This document shows, piece after piece, positions 2,789 to 53,287 of a stretch of DNA of 64,000 nt. The notes beneath the pieces are model-generated. The model saw nothing but the letters and a program-made list of their open reading frames with translations. It had not been told where the DNA came from and ran no database searches. Source of the stretch: an uncultured Bacillota bacterium. GTDB taxonomy: Bacteria; Bacillota_I; Bacilli_A; RF39; UBA660. The DNA is taken from positions 1,155 to 65,154 of the forward strand of contig CAOJZV010000005.1 of assembly GCA_948466255.1 (NCBI GenBank), read 5' to 3'. Position 1 is the first letter of the stretch, and every line of letters starts with the position of its first letter. The position numbers were made by a program, and so were the translations under genes.

Positions 2789-3313
2789 CTATAAATACTT
2801 ATCTAATAATTCTTTAACAATCGATTTATATTCTACATCAGTACTTTCCTCAGCTTCAATTAAACATAAAGGAGGAAACAATACACACCACCAATTATCA
2901 CCTTTACCTTCACCTAAAGTAACTAATAAAGATTCATAATATCCTTCTTCATATTTCACACCTTTATATTCCTTCTCAGGAAAATAATTCATTCCAAAAT
3001 TAACATCATAATTTTTATTATATTTTTCCCTTTCTAAAACTTGACCTACATTATTTTTAATAGAATCTAAATTTTCTAAGATAACTTTTCTAGCATCACC
3101 GCTACTTTTTGTATCTTTTAACAAATTATACATAGAAGTTTGAAGTTCATCACGAACTTTACCTTTTACCTTTTGGTCATAGTCAGAATTACTATTAGGC
3201 ACAACCCTAATTCTAATTGCATCTTCTGGAATTTCTATGTTTTTTGCCATTACATCAGAAATAATAAAATAAAAACCAAATATAAATAACAATAAAATAA
3301 TAGTCTTTTTCAT
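2789..3313 (-). CDS. spoIIR: stage II sporulation protein R
   Basis: signal peptide; IRIRVVPNSNSD and GDNWWCVLFPPLC motifs match B. subtilis SpoIIR (IRLRILANSDSD / GANWWCVLFPPLC). Confidence 0.75.
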   Translation of the reverse strand: MKKTIILLLFIFGFYFIISDVMAKNIEIPEDAIRIRVVPNSNSDYDQKVKGKVRDELQTSMYNLLKDTKSSGDARKVILENLDSIKNNVGQVLEREKYNKNYDVNFGMNYFPEKEYKGVKYEEGYYESLLVTLGEGKGDNWWCVLFPPLCLIEAEESTDVEYKSIVKELLDKYL

Positions 3314-21184: not shown

Positions 21185-23107
21185 CTATTGTTTATCAATT
21201 TTGAAATTAGCCTGATAGCTATTACCTAAATCAATTTCATCAACATCAATTTTATAACCTAATCTTTCGATTTGATCAGCACAATTTCTAATTAAACGAA
21301 TTACTTCAATAAAATTATTATTTGTTGATTCAATAGCAGAAGAATTATTAACATTACTATTCATAACATCTGGAGTTGGGGCTTCTAAAATATCTGAATC
21401 TGGGATGTTGGTCATAACTGGCTCTGGAACTGCTGGAACAACAGATTCTGGAGTTGGTTGAATAGTCTGAGTTACAGGTTCTACCATTTGTATTGGTTCT
21501 GCCGGAACTTCTTCTATCAATGGTTGTTCTGGAATATTAAATGCCTCTGGAGTAATAGGTGCTTGATTTTGAACTAATTCACTATAAAGTGGTGATTGTT
21601 GTCCTTCGCTTTCATTATTTATCAAAGTTTTTGGCTGAATCGTATCCGTTCTTGGCATAACAATTGGTTCTACCACAGACTCCATTGGTTGCTCCTGTGG
21701 AATTGATGATACATTTTCTTGTACAGGTTGAATTACAGGTTCTGGATTTATTGTTTCCACATTAGGAGAAACTATAGATTCTTCTGGTAATTGTGAATTC
21801 ATTGCATTTTTTACTGCTTCCGCAATACTAACTCCCTCTGTTTCCGATAATGTTTCTACTTCAGGTGCTTCATTAGATGTTATTGGTTGTTCTGAAACAA
21901 TATTTTCTACAGGTTTATCTAATTGCTCAGAATTTGGTATAGACTGAGTTACAGTTTCTGTATTAGTTGGTTGTAAGTTAGAAGGTAATTGATTAAATAT
22001 ACTATCAAAACTTGCTTCATCGCTTGCTGGAACACTTGGTGTTTCTACTTTTTGTTTTTCTTCTGGTTGAACAATTCCACTAAAATTAACAAATTTATTT
22101 TGATCATCATTTACCAAAGGAATTTCACTTTCAGTTGATGGTTCTATTTCAGAAATAATTGGTTCTACTGGATTAGTAGGCATCTCAAAAACATTATTGT
22201 CATTTTTCATAAGTTCAGAAATATCTTTATTTTCTTCTGGTACATTAATATCTTGAGCTTCTCTCATAATTTTATCTATATCCATACCCTTTTCATCCTT
22301 TCTCATTAAGTTTTCTTCTATTTCTTTTGGTAAACTAACTCTAATAATTTCATGACTACCTCTAGGAACAGCCTTTTTTGGCTTATTTATTGGTTCATCA
22401 GCCCCAAATAATTCTTCAACTGGTTCTGATTTGATAAAATTTGGTTTCTTTATTTCTTTTTCAGTGATTGTTTCCTTTTCTGGAATAATCACTTCTTTAT
22501 CTTTTTCTAACACATCTCTAATTGCTTCATCTGTTTTCTTAACAGTTAGTCTTTCATTTATAATCCTATTAAGCATTTCTATTTGTTTGTTTCTATCATT
22601 TAACCTTAATAAAGATCTTGCATGTCTTTCTGAAATTTTTCCATTCAAAAGAGCATACTGAACTTGGTCATCCAAATTAAGTAATCTTACTTTATTAGCA
22701 ATTGTAGATTGCGTTTTTCCTAATTTTTCCGCTAATTGAACTTGTGTAATATAACCCATATCTAATATTCTTTTATATGATACAGCTTCTTCAATAGGAG
22801 TTAAATTTTGTCTTTGTACATTTTCAAGTAAAGCTATTTCTTCACTTTCTTTATCATTTAAGTTTATAATAATAGCAGGGATAGTACTTTTATTAGCAAT
22901 TTTACTAGCTTTATATCTTCTTTCACCAGCAATTATTTCATATTTATCACCAATTTGACGAACAACGATTGGTTGAATTACACCATATTTACGAATAGAT
23001 TCAGCAAGTTCATTTAATTTTGTTTCATCAAAATGAATACGTGGTTGAAATCTATTTGGTAAAACATCTTCAATATTTAGTGTATTTAAATTGCCATATT
23101 CATACAT
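21185..23107 (-). CDS. parB: ParB/Spo0J-family chromosome partitioning protein with about 390-aa low-complexity P/E/Q/S/V-rich linker
   Basis: N-terminal ParB box GERRYKAS and HTH; 640 aa (typical ParB about 280 aa); sits at the conserved rsmG-adjacent position; no ParA/Soj gene adjacent. Confidence 0.8.
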   Translation of the reverse strand: MYEYGNLNTLNIEDVLPNRFQPRIHFDETKLNELAESIRKYGVIQPIVVRQIGDKYEIIAGERRYKASKIANKSTIPAIIINLNDKESEEIALLENVQRQNLTPIEEAVSYKRILDMGYITQVQLAEKLGKTQSTIANKVRLLNLDDQVQYALLNGKISERHARSLLRLNDRNKQIEMLNRIINERLTVKKTDEAIRDVLEKDKEVIIPEKETITEKEIKKPNFIKSEPVEELFGADEPINKPKKAVPRGSHEIIRVSLPKEIEENLMRKDEKGMDIDKIMREAQDINVPEENKDISELMKNDNNVFEMPTNPVEPIISEIEPSTESEIPLVNDDQNKFVNFSGIVQPEEKQKVETPSVPASDEASFDSIFNQLPSNLQPTNTETVTQSIPNSEQLDKPVENIVSEQPITSNEAPEVETLSETEGVSIAEAVKNAMNSQLPEESIVSPNVETINPEPVIQPVQENVSSIPQEQPMESVVEPIVMPRTDTIQPKTLINNESEGQQSPLYSELVQNQAPITPEAFNIPEQPLIEEVPAEPIQMVEPVTQTIQPTPESVVPAVPEPVMTNIPDSDILEAPTPDVMNSNVNNSSAIESTNNNFIEVIRLIRNCADQIERLGYKIDVDEIDLGNSYQANFKIDKQ

Positions 23108-30001: not shown

Positions 30002-30246
30002 TTATCACTTTTCCACATATCAAAATTTACCTAAATAGTCTTATTTTATTTTTATCACAAAATTTTCCACCATATTTTTTAAATATTTTAATATGTTTAT
30101 TCCTTTTTCAACATATGTGGATAACTTTATTTTTATTCTTATTGTTGATAATTACTTTTTCCACATTTACTGTGGAAAAAAGCTATTTTTGATTAAATTT
30201 TCACTATTTTTACCCTGTGGATATCTTTTTTTTAGTTTTTTCCACA
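30002..30246. promoter_or_regulatory. oriC part 1: cluster of at least 7 DnaA boxes upstream of dnaA
   Basis: matches to TTATCCACA/TGTGGATAA: TGTGGATAA perfect at 30117-30125; TTTTCCACA at 30010, 30157, 30238; TGTGGAAAA at 30171; TGTGGATAT at 30216; weaker TTATCAC boxes at 30002 and 30052. Confidence 0.75.
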
Positions 30247-32929: not shown

Positions 32930-33050
32930 AAGTTCTTTTTTTTTTACAAAAAATTTAATTTTACGACAAATATTGATAATTTTTGACAAACAAAATGTGT
33001 ATAAGAGAAGCATCAGATTTTTTTATCTGATTAGAAACAGGGGGAAATAT

Positions 33051-33503
33051 ATGAATGAATACGAAATTACAAGTGAAACATGTGCTTTAATATCTGTAAG
33101 TGAAAATGCAACTGAAGTAATAGAATTAGGTAAGAAATTTATTATTGAAGATAAACTAACAGATATATTAAAAAGAAGCTGTGAATTTTATGGATGTACA
33201 TTAGAAGGAAGAATAAAAGGAAGCCAAATGCAATTAGGAATGAAATATAAATTGCCAATTATCATTGAAAATACAAAAGAAATTATCTTTTTTCCAACTT
33301 CATCACCTAGATTAGAAAATTGTAGTTGGATTTCTTTAAAAAATATCAAAAATTATGAAGAAAATAGATTTGGATCAATCATAGAATTTATAGATGATAA
33401 TAAATTAATTTTACCAATTTCACTAGAATCACTTGAAAATCAGATATTTAGAGCTACAAAATTAATGTTAATTTCACGTAAACGCAGTAAAATGGAAAAA
33501 TAG
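33051..33503 (+). CDS. comK: ComK-like competence transcription factor
   Basis: likely start MNEYEI (RBS AGGGGGAAATAT); SCEFYGCTLEGRIKG, KLPIIIENTKEIIFFPTSSPRLENCSWIS and ILPISLESLENQIFRATKL align with B. subtilis ComK (SCRFFGSSYAGRKAG, KPPIMVDPSNQIFLFPTLSSTRPQCGWIS, ELPISYNSFENQVYRTAWL). Confidence 0.6.
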   Translation: MNEYEITSETCALISVSENATEVIELGKKFIIEDKLTDILKRSCEFYGCTLEGRIKGSQMQLGMKYKLPIIIENTKEIIFFPTSSPRLENCSWISLKNIKNYEENRFGSIIEFIDDNKLILPISLESLENQIFRATKLMLISRKRSKMEK

Positions 33504-36678: not shown

Positions 36679-39159
36679 ATGGATAAAGATAAATTACAAG
36701 AGAACAACATAGTAGATGAAATAGAAAAATCATTCCTTGAGTATTCAATGAGTGTAATTGTATCCCGTGCTTTACCAGATTTAAGAGACGGATTAAAACC
36801 AGTTCACCGAAGAATACTATATTCAATGTATGAATCAGGTTATACTCCTGATAAACCACATAAAAAGAGTGCTAGAATTGTCGGAGACGTAATGGGTAAA
36901 TACCACCCACATGGTGACTCATCAATTTATGAAGCAATGGTAAGAATGGCTCAAGACTTTAGCTATAGATATATGTTAGTAGATGGTCACGGAAACTTTG
37001 GTATTATTGAAGGTTCTGGAGCCGCTGCAATGCGTTATACTGAATCAAGATTATCAAAATTATCATTAGAATTATTAAGAGATCTTAATAAAGATACCGT
37101 AGATTTTGATCCAAACTTTGATGAATCATTAAAAGAACCAAAAATATTACCTTCAAGATTTCCAAATATTTTAGTAAATGGTACTATGGGAATTGCCGTA
37201 GGTATGGCAACCAATATTCCACCACATAATTTAAGTGAAGTTATTGATGGATGTGTTGCTTATATTGATAATCCTGATATTGATACAATGGGATTAATGC
37301 AATATATAAAAGGTCCAGATTTTCCAACAGGCGCAACTATTTTAGGTAATAGTGGAATCAAGAAAGCTTATGAAACAGGAAAAGGCTCTATTACAATCCG
37401 AAGTAAAGCTCAAATAGAAGAAAAAAATGGAAAACAATATATAGTTATTACAGAAGTTCCATACGGAGTTAAAACATCAGAATTAAAAGATAAGGTTGCT
37501 GAATTAGTTCACAACAAAACAATCGATGGAATTTCTGATTATCATACTGATTTAAAAAATGGTGTAAAAATTACAATAACCCTTAAAAAGGACGCAAATG
37601 CACAAGTTGTATTAAATAATTTGTATAAACATACATCATTCCAAACAACTTTTGGTATTACATTATTAATGTTAGATAATGGAGTTCCAAAAACATTAGG
37701 ATTAAAAGATATAATTTCAAAATATATTGATTATCAAAAAGAAATTATTATTAGAAGAACAAGATATGATCTAAATAAAGCAGAAAATCGTGTTCATATA
37801 TTAGAAGGCTTAAAAATAGCTTTAGATAACATAGATGCCGTTATAAAGCTTATTAGAGCATCTAAATCAGATGAAGAAGCTAGAGCAGGGCTTATGAATA
37901 ATTTCAAATTAAGTGAAGCTCAAGCAAATGCTATACTAGAAATGAAATTAAGAAGGTTAACTGGTTTAGAAAGAGAAAAAGTAGAAGACGAATTAAAAGA
38001 ACTACTAGAAAAAATTAGATATTATAAAGAAGTTCTTGCATCAGAACAAAAAATCTTAGGTATAATTAAAGATGAAATGTTAGAAATAAAAAATAAATAT
38101 GGTGATGATAGAAGAACAGACATCGATATGACTGCAATTGACTATATTGAAGATGAATCATTAATACCTGTGGAAAACATAGTTATAACATTAACTAATA
38201 ATGGTTATATTAAACGTATGACTAGTGAAACTTACAAAACTCAAAATAGAGGTGGAGTAGGAATTAAAGGAATGGCTACAAATGAAGATGATTTTGTGGA
38301 AAACTTAATATCAATGACCACTCATGATTACTTAATGTTCTTCACAAACCGTGGAAAAGTATATAGAGTTAAAGGTTATGAAGTACCACAATATAGTAGA
38401 CAATCAAAAGGATTACCAATTATCAATCTTTTACCTCTTGAAAAAGATGAAAAGGTAAAAGCAATGCTAAAGGTTAGTTCTGAAGACGAAAATCAATATA
38501 TTGTATTTTGTACACAAAGAGGTTTAGTTAAGAGAACAGCTCTATCAGAATTTGAAAATATAAGATCAAACGGTAAAATTGCAATAAATTTAAAAGATAA
38601 TGATGAATTAATTTCAGTTAAGAAAACAACTGGGGAAAACGAAATTATAATTGCATCTTCAAATGGCCGAATGATTAGATTTGATGAATCTGAAATCAGA
38701 GTTATGGGAAGAACAGCCTCAGGTGTTAAAGGAATTGATCTTGGTGATGGTATCTGCGTAGGATGTGAAATAGCTCTTCCAGGACAACAAATACTAGTTG
38801 CTACAGAAAAAGGTTATGGAAAACGTACCGCAGTAGAAGAATACAGAATGACTCACCGTGGAAGCAAAGGAGTAAAAGCTCTAAACGTTACAGAAAAGAA
38901 TGGTAATATTGTATCATTTAAATTAGTAAACGGTGATGAAGACTTAATGATTATTACTGATAGTGGAATAATTATTAGATTATCAATAGAACAAGTTTCT
39001 ACTACAGGTAGAGTAGCCCAAGGTGTAAGATTAATTCATTTAAAAGATAATCAAAAAGTTAGTACAGTTGCTCTTCTAGCTAAAGAAGAAGTAGAAGAAG
39101 AAATATTTGAGGAACAACCAGCAACAGAAGAAACTATGGAAAAAACAGATGAAGATTAA
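36679..39159 (+). CDS. gyrA: DNA gyrase subunit A
   Basis: 826 aa; active-site region [10 protein letters not shown]; C-terminal beta-pinwheel repeats. Confidence 0.95.
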
Positions 39160-39175
39160 TGATAACCAAAAGCAA

Positions 39176-39191
39176 TGTTTCACGTGGAACA
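39176..39191. promoter_or_regulatory. parS site 1 (TGTTTCACGTGGAACA); may double as the gyrA terminator hairpin
   Basis: 15/16 match to the palindromic consensus TGTTTCACGTGAAACA; identical to the B. subtilis parS TGTTCCACGTGAAACA on the opposite strand; followed by TTTTT. Confidence 0.7.
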
Positions 39192-39229
39192 TTGCTTTTT
39201 AGTTATAAAAAAATACAAAAGAAGATTAT

Positions 39230-39245
39230 AGTTTCACGTGAAACA
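39230..39245. promoter_or_regulatory. parS site 2 (AGTTTCACGTGAAACA)
   Basis: 15/16 match to the parS consensus; perfect 14-bp palindromic core GTTTCACGTGAAAC. Confidence 0.7.
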
Positions 39246-39399
39246 TTAGAAATATAAATTTAAATAATATATTAATTTATATAAATTAACAAAAAGGTAA
39301 AACCAATAATAAAATAAAATGTAGAAAATATATAAAGATAAAACTAAATTCTCTTTTAAAAGAAAAAATAGTGAAAAATAAATAAAAAGATATAAACCA

Positions 39400-39415
39400 T
39401 GTTTCACGTGAAACT
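39400..39415. promoter_or_regulatory. parS site 3 (TGTTTCACGTGAAACT)
   Basis: 15/16 match to the parS consensus. Confidence 0.7.
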
Positions 39416-39473
39416 ATACATGTATTAATTAAAAGTATGGAAAAAACCTAGATAAAAAATAATATATAGATAA

Positions 39474-39489
39474 TGTTTCACGTGAAACA
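39474..39489. promoter_or_regulatory. parS site 4 (TGTTTCACGTGAAACA, perfect; extended palindrome TAATGTTTCACGTGAAACATTA)
   Basis: 16/16 match to the parS consensus. Confidence 0.75.
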
Positions 39490-39535
39490 TTATAATAGTT
39501 TGCCTTTTTTTATAAAATCATATATCATTATTAAT

Positions 39536-39608
39536 GGCACAACATTTATGTTCGAACCAGGTCAGAATCGGAAGATAGCAGCCTTAAGAATCTCTAAATG
39601 TGTGTGCC
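39536..39608 (+). ncRNA. ffs: small SRP RNA (4.5S/scRNA-type, about 73 nt)
   Basis: CCAGGUCAGAAUCGGAAGAUAGCAGCC matches the conserved domain IV of bacterial SRP RNA (CCAGGUCAGGUCCGGAAGGAAGCAGCC); closing helix GGCACA/UGUGCC plus ACAUUUA/UAAAUGU; followed by UUUUAUU; same neighbourhood (tadA, dnaX) as B. subtilis scr. Confidence 0.7.
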
Positions 39609-39627
39609 TTTTATTATAGGTGATAAT

Positions 39628-40032
39628 ATGGATAAATATATGGAAATAGCTTTTAAAGAAGCAAAAAAAGCATTAAAAACAGATGATGTTCCAGTTGGGG
39701 CAGTAATTGTGGAAAATGGAAAGATAATTGCAAAAGCACACAATACAAGAGAAAAAAAGAAACTTGTAACTAGACATGCTGAAATAAATGCTGTGGAAAA
39801 AGCGTGTAAAAAGAAGAAAAATTGGTATTTAAATGATTGTGAATTATATGTTACATTAGAACCATGTAAAATGTGTATGGGGGCCATTGAGCAAGCACGA
39901 ATTAAAACTATTATATATGCAGCTCCAAGAGATAAAATCGATAATTTAAAAATGCCAGAAGTGAAACAAGGGAAAGGTGTGGAAAACTCACAAGAACTCC
40001 TTAAATCCTTTTTTAAAAATAAAAGAAAATAA
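39628..40032 (+). CDS. tadA: tRNA-specific adenosine deaminase
   Basis: likely start MDKYMEIAFKEAKK (RBS AGGTGA); zinc-binding HAE...PCxxC motifs (HAEINAV, PCKMC). Confidence 0.85.
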   Translation: MDKYMEIAFKEAKKALKTDDVPVGAVIVENGKIIAKAHNTREKKKLVTRHAEINAVEKACKKKKNWYLNDCELYVTLEPCKMCMGAIEQARIKTIIYAAPRDKIDNLKMPEVKQGKGVENSQELLKSFFKNKRK

Positions 40033-46808: not shown

Positions 46809-49800
46809 ATGAGCTTCCTAGATAATCTCATAGAAATTGATAGTGAAAAAGAAGTTATCGGATTAACCAGTGAATTAAAAAGTTTATATGTTTATAATAA
46901 ATTTAAAAAAGAAAATAAATCTATTATTTTAGTTACATCAAACTTACATAATGCTGGAAAATACTATGCTTCGATAGCCCGCCATACTGACAAAGTATGG
47001 TTTTTCCCTATGGATGATTTTCTTACTAGTGAAGCCATTGCTATTTCACCAGAATTTAAAATAAACAGACTAGAAACAATAAATAACCTATTAAATGGTG
47101 AAAAAGTAATAATTATTACTAATTTAATGGGATATTTAAGGTTTTTGCCTCCAAAACCAAATTTTAAAGATAGTTATATAACATTAAAAACAAACGAAGA
47201 ATATAATCAAAAAGAATTAGTAGAAAAGCTATTTAAACTAGGATATAAAAGACAAACAACAGTGAATATGACAGGAGAAATAGCTGTAAGAGGTTTTGTT
47301 TTAGATATATTTCCAATTAATAGTGAAAACCCAATAAGAATTGAATTTTGGGGAGATACTATAGATACAATCAAAACATTTAATATTGATAGCCAAAGGA
47401 CCCAAAAAACGATAAATGAAATAACAATATATCCAAATACGGAATTTTTAATTGATAAAGATCCTTTTGAAACACCATATCGTGATATATATAAATATAT
47501 AAAAGTCGCAAATATATCAGATTATTTAGATAATCCAATAACTATATACGATAACTATCACGAATTAAAAACAAATTATAAATTATTGAGGGAAGAAATC
47601 TTAGACTACAATATTAGTACAAACAGGCCCGCAGATACCAAATATATGCATAATTTAGAAGATATCAAAGCCAAAGATACAATAATATTTGAAAATTTTG
47701 AAAACCATAAAAATGAAAAACATACTAAAATATATAATACAAAGGATGTAGAAGCTTTTCCAAAACACCCAAAAGACATTAATGAACGTTTAAATACATA
47801 TCTAAAAGTACATAAAAGGGTAGTAATTTGCCTAGATAACAGGTATCAAGTAAATAGATTAACCGAAACATTAGAAAATCCAAATATTATTTATACAAAT
47901 GAAAAAAAATTATTTCCCGGGAAAATAAATATTATTGTTAAAAAATTAAATAATGGTTTTGAAATAGATGATTATGTAATAATTACACCAAAAGAATTAT
48001 ATGGAAAAAGTAATGAAAACAATTATAAAAGTAAATTTAGATATGGTTCAAAAATAAAAGATATTAGTAAATTAGAAATTGGTGACTTTGTTGTTCATGG
48101 AAAACATGGTATTGGTAGATACTTAGGAATAAAAACAGTACCTAAAAATGGAATAAAAAAAGATTATTTAATGATTGAATATAAAGGAAATGATAAATTA
48201 TATATTCCTGTAGAAAAATTAGAATATATCACAAAATATTCAGGAAAAGAAGGAGCTCAGCCTAAATTAAATAAATTAGGAAGCCATGATTGGGAAAAAA
48301 CAAAAGCAAGGGCTAGAAAACACGCTGAAGATATGGCTGAAGAATTACTAGAATTATATGCAATCAGAGAATCACAAAAAGGTTTTGCATTCCTTGAAGA
48401 TTCAAAAGAACAATATGAATTTGAAAATGAATTTGAATATCAAGAAACAAATGATCAATTAAGAGTAATTGAAGAAATCAAAAAAGATATGGAGTCTCCA
48501 AAACCAATGGATAGACTTCTTTGTGGAGATGTTGGATACGGTAAAACCGAAGTGGCGTTCAGAGCGATATTTAAATGCATTTTATCGGGCAAGCAGGCTG
48601 CAATTCTTTGTCCAACAACCATTTTATCGTCACAACACTACAAAAATGCAATGGGGAGATTTAAATCATTTCCTATTAATATAGAAATAATCAATCGGTT
48701 TGTTTCAACAAAAAAATTAAAAGAAACTTTAAAACGATTAGAAGAGGGCAAAATAGATTTATTAATTGGTACACATAGATTATTAAGCGATGATGTTAAA
48801 TTTAAAGACCTAGGCTTATTAGTTATAGATGAAGAACAACGTTTTGGAGTTAAACACAAAGAAAAAATAAAACAATATAAAAATAACATAGATGTTTTAA
48901 CCTTATCTGCTACTCCAATACCAAGAACATTACAAATGTCTATGGCAGGAATTAGAAGTCTTTCTTTAATAGAAACCCCACCTGCCCAAAGATATCCTAT
49001 TCAAACTTACGTTTTAGCTGAAAATAACCAAATAATAAAAGAAGCAATTTATAAAGAAATGGCTAGACAGGGACAAGTTTTTGTACTTTTTAATAGAGTA
49101 GAAAATTTAGAATTAAAAAAAGCACAATTACAAAAATTAGTTCCCGATGCCAAAATAGCTATTGCTCATGGGCAAATGAATAAAAATGAATTAGAAGATG
49201 TAATGATTAAATTTAATAATCAGGAATTTGATGTATTATTATGTACAACAATAATCGAAACAGGAATTGACATACCGACAGTAAATACATTGATAATAAT
49301 AGATGCTGATTACTTTGGATTATCACAGCTTTATCAAATTAGAGGAAGAATTGGGAGAAGTAATAAAATTGCCTATTGTTATTTAATGTATGACAATAAA
49401 AAGATTCTTTCAGAAATTGCTACAAAAAGATTAAAAGTTATTAAAGATTTTACCGAATTAGGAAGTGGATTTGCCATTGCTATGAGAGATTTATCAATAA
49501 GAGGAGCAGGCGATATTTTAGGATCAAAACAAGCAGGTTTTATTGATAGTATAGGAATAGAATTATTCTTAGAAATGTTAAATGAAGCAGTTAAAAAACT
49601 TCAAGGAAAAGAGGTTAAAAAAGAAGAACTAGAAGAAACAAATCCATTAATAGAAGTAGAAACATATATATCAGATGAATATGTCAAAGAAGAAGAATTA
49701 AAACTAGAAATTCATAAAAAAATCAATGAAATAGATTCATATGAAAAACTAGAAGAAGTAAAATCAGAAATAGAAGATAGATTTGGAAAAGTGTCTGAAG

Positions 49801-52521: not shown

Positions 52522-53043
52522 ATGAAAGCAACAGGTGTCGTAAGAAGAATAGATGATTTAGGTAGAATAGTTATACCAAAAGAAATAAGAAAAACTTTAA
52601 GATTAAAAAATGGTGAAAATTTAGAAATATTTGTAGATGAAAACGAAAACATTATTTTAAAGAAATATAGTCAAATAGATAAATTAAAAGAATTTGCTGG
52701 TCAAATTACCGAAGCTATAAATAATGTTACCAAAAAATCAGTTTTCATTATAAATACAGATTCTTTTGTATCCATAAGCGGAAAGAAGAAAGAATATCTT
52801 AATAAACCAATCTCAAATGAATTAATTGAAATGATAAATAATCGTCACGAAATAAAAAATCAATATCAAGTTCAAATGACAGAAGAAAAAATAGAAAACG
52901 AAAATATAGCATTTTGTCCAATAATAATAAACGGAGATGCGATAGGAGCAATAATGATGATGTCAAAGGATGAAGTAACAGAAACTGATTTTCAAACACT
53001 AAAAATAATTTCTAGCTTTTTAACCAAACATATTGAAGATTAA
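52522..53043 (+). CDS. spoVT: stage V sporulation protein T (AbrB-N + GAF-like)
   Basis: MKATGVVRRIDDLGRIVIPKEIRKTLRLKNGENLEIFVD is near-identical to B. subtilis SpoVT; 173 aa; conserved mfd-spoVT linkage. Confidence 0.85.
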   Translation: MKATGVVRRIDDLGRIVIPKEIRKTLRLKNGENLEIFVDENENIILKKYSQIDKLKEFAGQITEAINNVTKKSVFIINTDSFVSISGKKKEYLNKPISNELIEMINNRHEIKNQYQVQMTEEKIENENIAFCPIIINGDAIGAIMMMSKDEVTETDFQTLKIISSFLTKHIED

Positions 53044-53061: not shown

Positions 53062-53099
53062 TAACAGGAAAAAAGCGAAGAAAGAGAGAAAAATAGGTG

Positions 53100-53287
53100 A
53101 CTTTATAGAGAGTTTATGGTTGGTGGAAATAAACAAGGTGACTATTGGAAATGGCTCTAGAGCTTCTAAACCAAATAATTAAGTTTAGACGTAAGCATGC
53201 GTTAAATGTTTAAGGTAAGTATAATGCTTACAAATTAAGGTGGTACCACGTTCATCACGTCCTTATTTTTAAGGACGTTTTTTTATT
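53100..53287 (+). promoter_or_regulatory. T-box riboswitch leader (probable Met specifier AUG) with intrinsic terminator, preceding dut-DHH-metG
   Basis: AAUUAAGGUGGUACCACG (53233-53250) matches the T-box consensus AAUUAGGGUGGNACCGCG. Antiterminator: UAAGG[UGGUACC]ACG...CGUCCUUA. Terminator ACGUCCUUA-uuuuu-AAGGACGU plus U-tract at 53257-53287. Stem I has AGAGAG and AUG at 53151-53153 in specifier position. Confidence 0.7.

Follow-up and report, generated by a model that had tools for sequence, protein, structure and literature searches.

The gap between gyrA and ffs, the gene for the small SRP RNA, contains a compact array of four parS-type palindromes close to the likely replication origin. 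These sites are probably functional chromosomal parS, forming an origin-proximal centromere and ParB-loading zone that would be read by a canonical ParB encoded at a distance from the array. The one ParB-family protein encoded nearby bears a Noc-type signature and is predicted to recognize another motif, NBS, which in many sister species is interleaved with parS in the same gap.

Four parS sites in the gyrA-ffs gap

We searched the 64-kb stretch of DNA under analysis (hereafter, the window) with TGTTTCACGTGAAACA, a perfect 16-mer widely used in the literature as consensus parS, allowing up to 2 and then 3 mismatches. The search recovered four 16-bp palindromes in non-coding DNA (Table 1), one perfect and three with a single mismatch, all lying within 314 bp and separated by start-to-start spacings of 54, 170 and 74 bp. 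At up to 2 mismatches these were the only matches in the window, which has a GC content of 27.3%, and no match at all was obtained in 100 dinucleotide-preserving shuffles; relaxing the search to 3 mismatches added merely three matches, weak and scattered. The positions and spacings reported in the initial annotation were thereby reproduced, and its view that such a cluster is not to be expected by chance holds up. It had also equated site 1 with the parS of B. subtilis read from the other strand, and indeed site 1, once reverse-complemented, reads TGTTCCACGTGAAACA, the B. subtilis sequence.

All four sites fit the palindromic 16-bp parS pattern TGTTNCACGTGAAACA with no or one mismatch. The related motif NBS has the core ATTTCCCGGGAAAT. 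What tells parS from NBS are the half-site bases at positions 1 and 6, which are G1/A6 in the former and A1/C6 in the latter (PMC7383237). Both G1 and A6 are present in 8 of 8 half-sites in the window, and no NBS-like site occurs in the gyrA-ffs gap of the window even at 3 mismatches, so that, as judged from their bases, the four sites are confirmed as parS-type rather than NBS.

Together with their flanks, sites 2 and 3 form exact 20-nt inverted repeats (39227-39246, TATAGTTTCACGTGAAACAT, and 39399-39418, ATGTTTCACGTGAAACTATA), which gives the array a nested mirror symmetry (1-4 and 2-3). Tandem Repeats Finder returned AT-rich micro-repeats from this array and no parS-bearing unit. Independent assemblies of two other samples contain the entire 468-bp gap at 100% identity, indicating that the array is not an assembly artefact.

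Table 1. Features discussed in the text, with their positions in the window
Feature	Position	Strand	Remarks
parS site 1	39176..39191		TGTTTCACGTGGAACA; core of the gyrA terminator-like hairpin
parS site 2	39230..39245		AGTTTCACGTGAAACA
parS site 3	39400..39415		TGTTTCACGTGAAACT
parS site 4	39474..39489		Perfect TGTTTCACGTGAAACA, inside a 24-nt palindrome
gyrA	36679..39159	+	Upstream boundary of the array
gyrA terminator-like hairpin	39168..39204	+	32-nt palindrome AAAAGCAATGTTTCACGTGGAACATTGCTTTT plus T-run, with site 1 as its core
ffs (small SRP RNA)	39526..39622	+	Rfam, 60.9 bits; downstream boundary of the array
tadA	39628..40032	+	Start at 39628 agrees with gene calls from other samples
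DnaA-box cluster	30009..30246		7 boxes, upstream of dnaA; likely oriC
dnaA	30321-31658		
ParB-family protein, Noc type (640 aa)	21185..23107	-	Pfam ParB_N and HTH_ParB in residues 1-200
Near-perfect NBS	47912..47925		ATTTCCCGGGAAAA, inside mfd; candidate target of the Noc-type protein

Position relative to the origin and to neighboring transcription units

The GC skew of the window switches near 30 kb, where the DnaA boxes are clustered upstream of dnaA, and this region is likely to be oriC, which places the array about 9 kb to its right, in agreement with the initial annotation of a compact intergenic array near the origin. To the left of the origin the minus strand carries rnpA-yidC-jag-mnmE-mnmG-rsmG, and to the right the plus strand carries dnaA-dnaN-comK-recF-gyrB-gyrA, with tadA, dnaX and recR following ffs. 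The ComK-family gene (32973-33503, plus strand) occupies the slot between dnaN and recF that usually holds the small S4-like yaaA/remB, and it is found between the same two genes in the distant relatives L083 and L085. Elsewhere in the window there are sporulation genes, spoIIR and spoVT-like (2789-3313 on the minus strand and 52522-53043 on the plus strand), and a T-box leader (53069-53267, plus strand; Rfam, 127 bits) that precedes metG together with a DHHA1 gene and a dUTPase-like gene.

Site 1 lies in a hairpin that begins 9 nt past the gyrA stop codon and consists of a 14-bp stem followed by UUUUU (dG -19.3 kcal/mol, z -6.4). With a stable hairpin and a U-run behind the stop codon, as in an intrinsic terminator, this structure can be described as terminator-like. 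At the other end of the array, about 10 bp separate the end of site 4 from a downstream promoter-like element, TTGCCT-17-TATCAT, which precedes ffs, so that the four sites fill the space between two transcription units. The gap itself holds nothing but low-complexity ORFs of at most 53 aa, none of them credible. Past its downstream boundary, the longest tadA ORF runs into the 3' end of ffs (39598-39630), and the tadA ribosome-binding site, AGGTGA (39618-39623), is located inside the final bases of ffs, suggesting co-transcription of ffs and tadA.

Conservation and turnover of the array in related genomes

A GyrA search limited to one genome per species yielded 80 loci with 74-92% GyrA identity, all of them from uncultured Bacilli of the gut or rumen, a part of which carry the label Tenericutes. 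The gap was regarded as complete where the locus continued from gyrA to ffs or tadA (n=66). Every complete gap contains at least one parS (66 of 66), 63 contain two or more and 35 contain four or more; the number per gap ranges from 1 to 12 with a median of 4, which is also the number in the window. When 1.54 Mb of origin-region DNA from the relatives was scanned for motifs, 344 of 358 parS cores (about 96%) fell inside the gyrA-ffs gap, which accounts for 3.7% of that DNA. Comparison of the same gap in related genomes had been proposed in the initial annotation as a check on the array, and the orthologous conservation that it revealed strongly suggests a function. Further, when the gap is compared with that of a relative whose GyrA is 91% identical, the alignment covers the parS motifs and ffs and none of the spacers, indicating that selection targets the 14-16-bp motif and the place where it lies, and not the surrounding DNA. 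Genomes of this low-GC lineage have been deposited as uncultured Tenericutes or Mollicutes, and complete chromosomes of relatives measure 1.3-1.5 Mb.

Part of this conservation bears on the question of whether the palindromes act mainly as hairpins, i.e. as terminators or attenuators serving gyrA and ffs, or as operators of some other factor, their likeness to parS being coincidental. Besides the strong terminator-like hairpin with its T-run at site 1 and the putative ffs promoter adjoining site 4, such a role would fit the arrangement seen in many relatives, in which the first site is found 2-40 nt past the gyrA stop within an extended palindrome. We nevertheless consider this reading extremely unlikely, as sites 2-4 have neither a T-run nor an extended stem, and up to 12 identical 16-mers go far beyond anything that termination would need. 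Moreover, the motif corresponds base for base to the universal parS, with G1/A6 in 346 copies, and it is the 14-16-bp core alone that is conserved, not its hairpin context.

The number of sites appears to change by tandem duplication and decay. Regular tandem arrays are present in 13 of 81 sequences (the window and its 80 relatives) with periods of 37-189 bp, those in sister species including 37, 53, 56, 74, 84, 95, 105 and 126 bp, and in the relatives they are built of head-to-tail units with one binding palindrome per unit. Relatives have up to 12 sites in 1.7 kb, and the minimum centre-to-centre spacing in the lineage is about 27-54 bp. The array of the window looks like an eroded version of such a tandem array. 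Helical phasing of the spacings was not detected, a Rayleigh test on 106-186 de-duplicated distances giving no signal at 10-11 bp. Fifteen contigs of relatives stop inside or just past the array, and those breaking off within it include L004, L005, L007, L008, L018, L020, L021, L023 and L046. As repeats break assemblies, contig ends at this place are to be expected; the arrays act as assembly breakpoints, and their lengths have probably been underestimated.

Such highly variable copy numbers and tandem expansions could also be produced by a dispersed or mobile short repeat, or the sites could be relics of parS left behind after loss of ParB, in either case with no current centromere function, and a canonical ParB was indeed not observed in the DNA analysed. 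We regard this explanation as very unlikely, since the motif is confined to one orthologous gap, which holds about 96% of its copies, in at least 66 species, is accompanied by no transposon-like flanks or ORFs, and stays perfect beside spacers that cannot be aligned, which speaks for ongoing purifying selection.

The ParB-family protein encoded downstream of rsmG

The candidate for a ParB binding the array, according to the initial annotation, was the product of the gene at 21185-23107, an assignment that our data do not support. The gene directly follows rsmG (gidB) in the order mnmE-mnmG-rsmG-gene, the same place that noc occupies in B. subtilis, in line with the genomic proximity noted in PMC7383237. 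Its 640-aa ORF, already taken at maximal length, starts only 8 residues ahead of the conserved PNRFQPR box. The best PDB matches of the protein are to Noc (7ng0 and 7nfu, 5e-60) as opposed to Spo0J (6sdk, 7e-46), and it shares 47-52% of its residues with Noc and 42-43% with Spo0J. Its score on the NCBIfam Noc model (TIGR04285), 267 bits, exceeds the 170 bits obtained on parB_part but stays below the Noc cut-off of 315 bits. When the linker, a stretch of about 380 aa that is acidic and proline-rich (E 15%, P 13%), is deleted in silico, the Noc model aligns end-to-end at 280 bits, still under 315, indicating a Noc-like C-terminal domain; a PDB sequence search with the C-terminal 70 aa gave no meaningful match. 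The HTH signature GKxQSTIANK...ERHAR is common to Noc and the 640-aa protein, and the CTP-binding motifs GERRY and ENVQR are kept. The N-terminal amphipathic helix that targets Noc to the membrane is absent, the alignment beginning at Noc residue 30. By these features the protein is of Noc type and appears Noc-derived, though atypical. It belongs to a family of 510-700-aa proteins from gut metagenomes with more than 7,000 database hits, and no database name is recorded for it.

At the specificity positions 173, 179, 184 and 201, where ParB has R-x-x-G and Noc has Q-K-K-R, the protein carries Q173-K179-N184-R201, and the same four residues are found in all 120 homologues listed (41-100% identity). 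Jalal et al. 2020 report that adenine 1 of NBS is read by Q173 and cytosine 6 by R201, and that the published scaffold needs lysine at no more than one of positions 179 and 184, whereas R173 is invariable in parS-specific variants recovered by mutational scanning (PMC7383237). Under these rules, which derive from a Caulobacter ParB scaffold and four Noc orthologues and not from the family of the 640-aa protein, Q173 and R201 lead to the prediction that it reads NBS (ATTTCCCGGGAAAT) and not the parS array. The QKNR combination is not among the variants listed in the text of the published mutational scan (PMC7383237).

NBS motifs and composite parS/NBS arrays

NBS motifs are strongly over-represented in the lineage: 93 perfect copies are present in the 1.54 Mb of relatives' DNA, as against 0 for eleven composition-matched control palindromes. 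Sites of the form NTTYCNC directly followed by GNGRAAN number 449, of which 346 belong purely to the parS type and 93 purely to the NBS type; about 10 fit neither type, and there is not a single hybrid joining a parS half to an NBS half. The absence of hybrids points to two separate and sharply specific readers rather than one relaxed reader.

Within the clade of the window NBS motifs are sparse and scattered, at a density similar to that in B. subtilis and against zero or one hits for the 11 control palindromes, and the near-perfect copy inside mfd (Table 1) was not retained as a conserved site, being found only in the window and in its closest relative, L003. Over the wider lineage, NBS occurs inside the gyrA-ffs array in 30 of the 66 complete gaps, often alternating with parS. 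The clearest architecture is that of L073 (12479-12892), where a 56-bp unit with one parS and one NBS is repeated in 7.4 copies; composite parS/NBS arrays were also seen in L077, L075, L081, L038, L057, L067, L070 and L080. When JGI metagenomes were scanned without restriction for parS and NBS paired within 36 bp, at least 120 loci were recovered (L087-L206), all low-GC, and 113 of the 120 matches listed adjoin gyrA, ffs, tadA or dnaX, so that the composite array can be viewed as a hallmark of this chromosomal position in a broad lineage. In full-text literature searches we came across neither a gyrA-ffs parS array nor a composite parS/NBS array, nor any account of two ParB-family clamps loading next to each other at an origin.

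These data also bear on the alternative that the 640-aa protein is itself the parS reader, i.e. the sole ParB-family protein of the genome, operating in a ParB-only system that, like that of streptococci, lacks ParA. No other ParB-family gene was found in the roughly 70 kb around oriC or next to rsmG in distant relatives, the protein keeps the motifs for CTP binding, members of its family occur together with the arrays throughout the lineage, and N184 invariantly differs from the K184 of Noc. We still judge this alternative unlikely. The protein combines the two NBS-reading residues, Q173 and R201, and the Q-K-N-R set does not vary in any of the 120 homologues listed; R173 is invariable not only in parS-specific variants but also in extant ParBs, and in variants with dual specificity position 201 is mostly occupied by T or S rather than by R (PMC7383237). 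In addition, perfect NBS are strongly over-represented in the lineage. Hybrid sites are essentially absent, as would not be expected of one relaxed reader. A more radical version, which we consider improbable, is that the lineage is devoid of any canonical ParB, and that the Noc-derived protein binds both the parS array and the interleaved NBS of sister species. If it were true, it would break the rule that parS recognition needs R173/G201, and would mean that a Noc lineage had gone back to the role of ParB or fused with it.

Search for a canonical ParB and a model for the array

We return to the reading that we favor, in which the four sites are served by a canonical ParB of the R173/G201 type. 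Genes for canonical ParB, ParA or SMC were found neither in the 64-kb window nor in the few kb past either of its ends (about 70 kb in total), nor within 10 kb on either side of gyrA in 80 species, nor in the 10 kb flanking the noc-like gene on each side in distant relatives. The Pfam scans took in 60 of the 64 listed ORFs of at least 100 aa, and tblastn with Spo0J and Noc was run on the window as well as on the 80 gyrA loci and the 120 metagenome loci; neither these searches nor the walk past the window ends yielded a second ParB-family gene or a ParA. Since neither a canonical ParB nor a ParA turned up in the roughly 70 kb around oriC, the reader of parS should be encoded elsewhere, and we infer that a distal parB (R173/G201) exists and encodes it, which is the weakest link in the argument.

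The known role of parS is in the nucleation of ParB-CTP clamps and in SMC loading (reviewed in PMC7333895). By analogy, each site in the array would nucleate a dimer of canonical ParB, which upon binding CTP would close into a clamp and slide onto the flanking DNA, so that the four sites in 314 bp may operate as a high-flux ParB loading point. The resulting partition complex would then recruit SMC, as well as ParA if the genome has one, to individualize and segregate the origin region. Site 1 would double as the stem of the gyrA terminator, a dual use that recurs in relatives: in about 49 of the 78 parS-carrying loci no more than 45 nt separate the gyrA stop from the first parS, which often sits in an extended palindrome. 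The location of the gap between a terminator and a promoter may shield the nucleation sites from transcription. Copy number of parS would drift among species (1-12) through tandem duplication and decay. The product of 21185-23107 would not take part as the parS reader, the gene for which would lie outside the roughly 70 kb examined.

Relation to known parS systems

The B. subtilis chromosome has about 8-10 parS sites, many of which are intragenic, dispersed across hundreds of kb. The array described here shares with the B. subtilis parS/Spo0J system the same 16-bp palindrome, to the point of identity at site 1 on the other strand, and the origin-proximal location, but it differs in that its four sites share 314 bp of a single intergenic gap at a position fixed in the lineage, and in that no soj-spo0J operon accompanies the noc-like gene. 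Multiple parS sites near oriC are likewise known from Caulobacter, Corynebacterium, Myxococcus, Streptomyces coelicolor and Listeria innocua, the latter with up to 20-23 sites, and these clusters extend over several kb to 200 kb. Compared with the clusters of other phyla, the gyrA-ffs array is denser and strictly intergenic, and in relatives it is composed of head-to-tail repeat units.

The closest architectural parallel is sopC of plasmid F, with its 12 tandem repeats of 43 bp. Arrays in sister species resemble it in being regular tandem repeats with one binding palindrome per unit. Unlike sopC, however, the gyrA-ffs array is chromosomal and uses the universal chromosomal parS motif, and in the window its repeat register is eroded, leaving no parS-bearing unit. 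With respect to the Noc/NBS system of Firmicutes, the similarities include the HTH signature of the 640-aa protein, its position after rsmG, its Noc-like C-terminal domain and the occurrence of perfect NBS motifs in the lineage. The differences are that the protein lacks the membrane-targeting region, has N184 in place of K and contains the linker of about 380 aa, that the four sites in the window are parS, and that the NBS of sister species are concentrated beside parS at the origin instead of being scattered. What sets the array apart from known parS clusters is the density, the lineage-fixed intergenic position and the sopC-like tandem architecture, as well as the lack of a soj-spo0J operon alongside and the interleaving with NBS in sister species.

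Chromosomes are known to carry from 1 to about 23 parS sites, and both the cause of their clustering and the factors that determine their number have been posed as open questions (PMC7333895). The gyrA-ffs gap offers a natural experiment on this clustering, in that one orthologous gap contains 1-12 copies in at least 66 species, with the birth and decay of tandem arrays visible. It should also be kept in mind that annotation of a ParB-family gene adjacent to rsmG as a partition protein can be wrong. Finally, the alternation of parS and NBS points to two ParB-family CTP clamps that may be loaded side by side at the origin.
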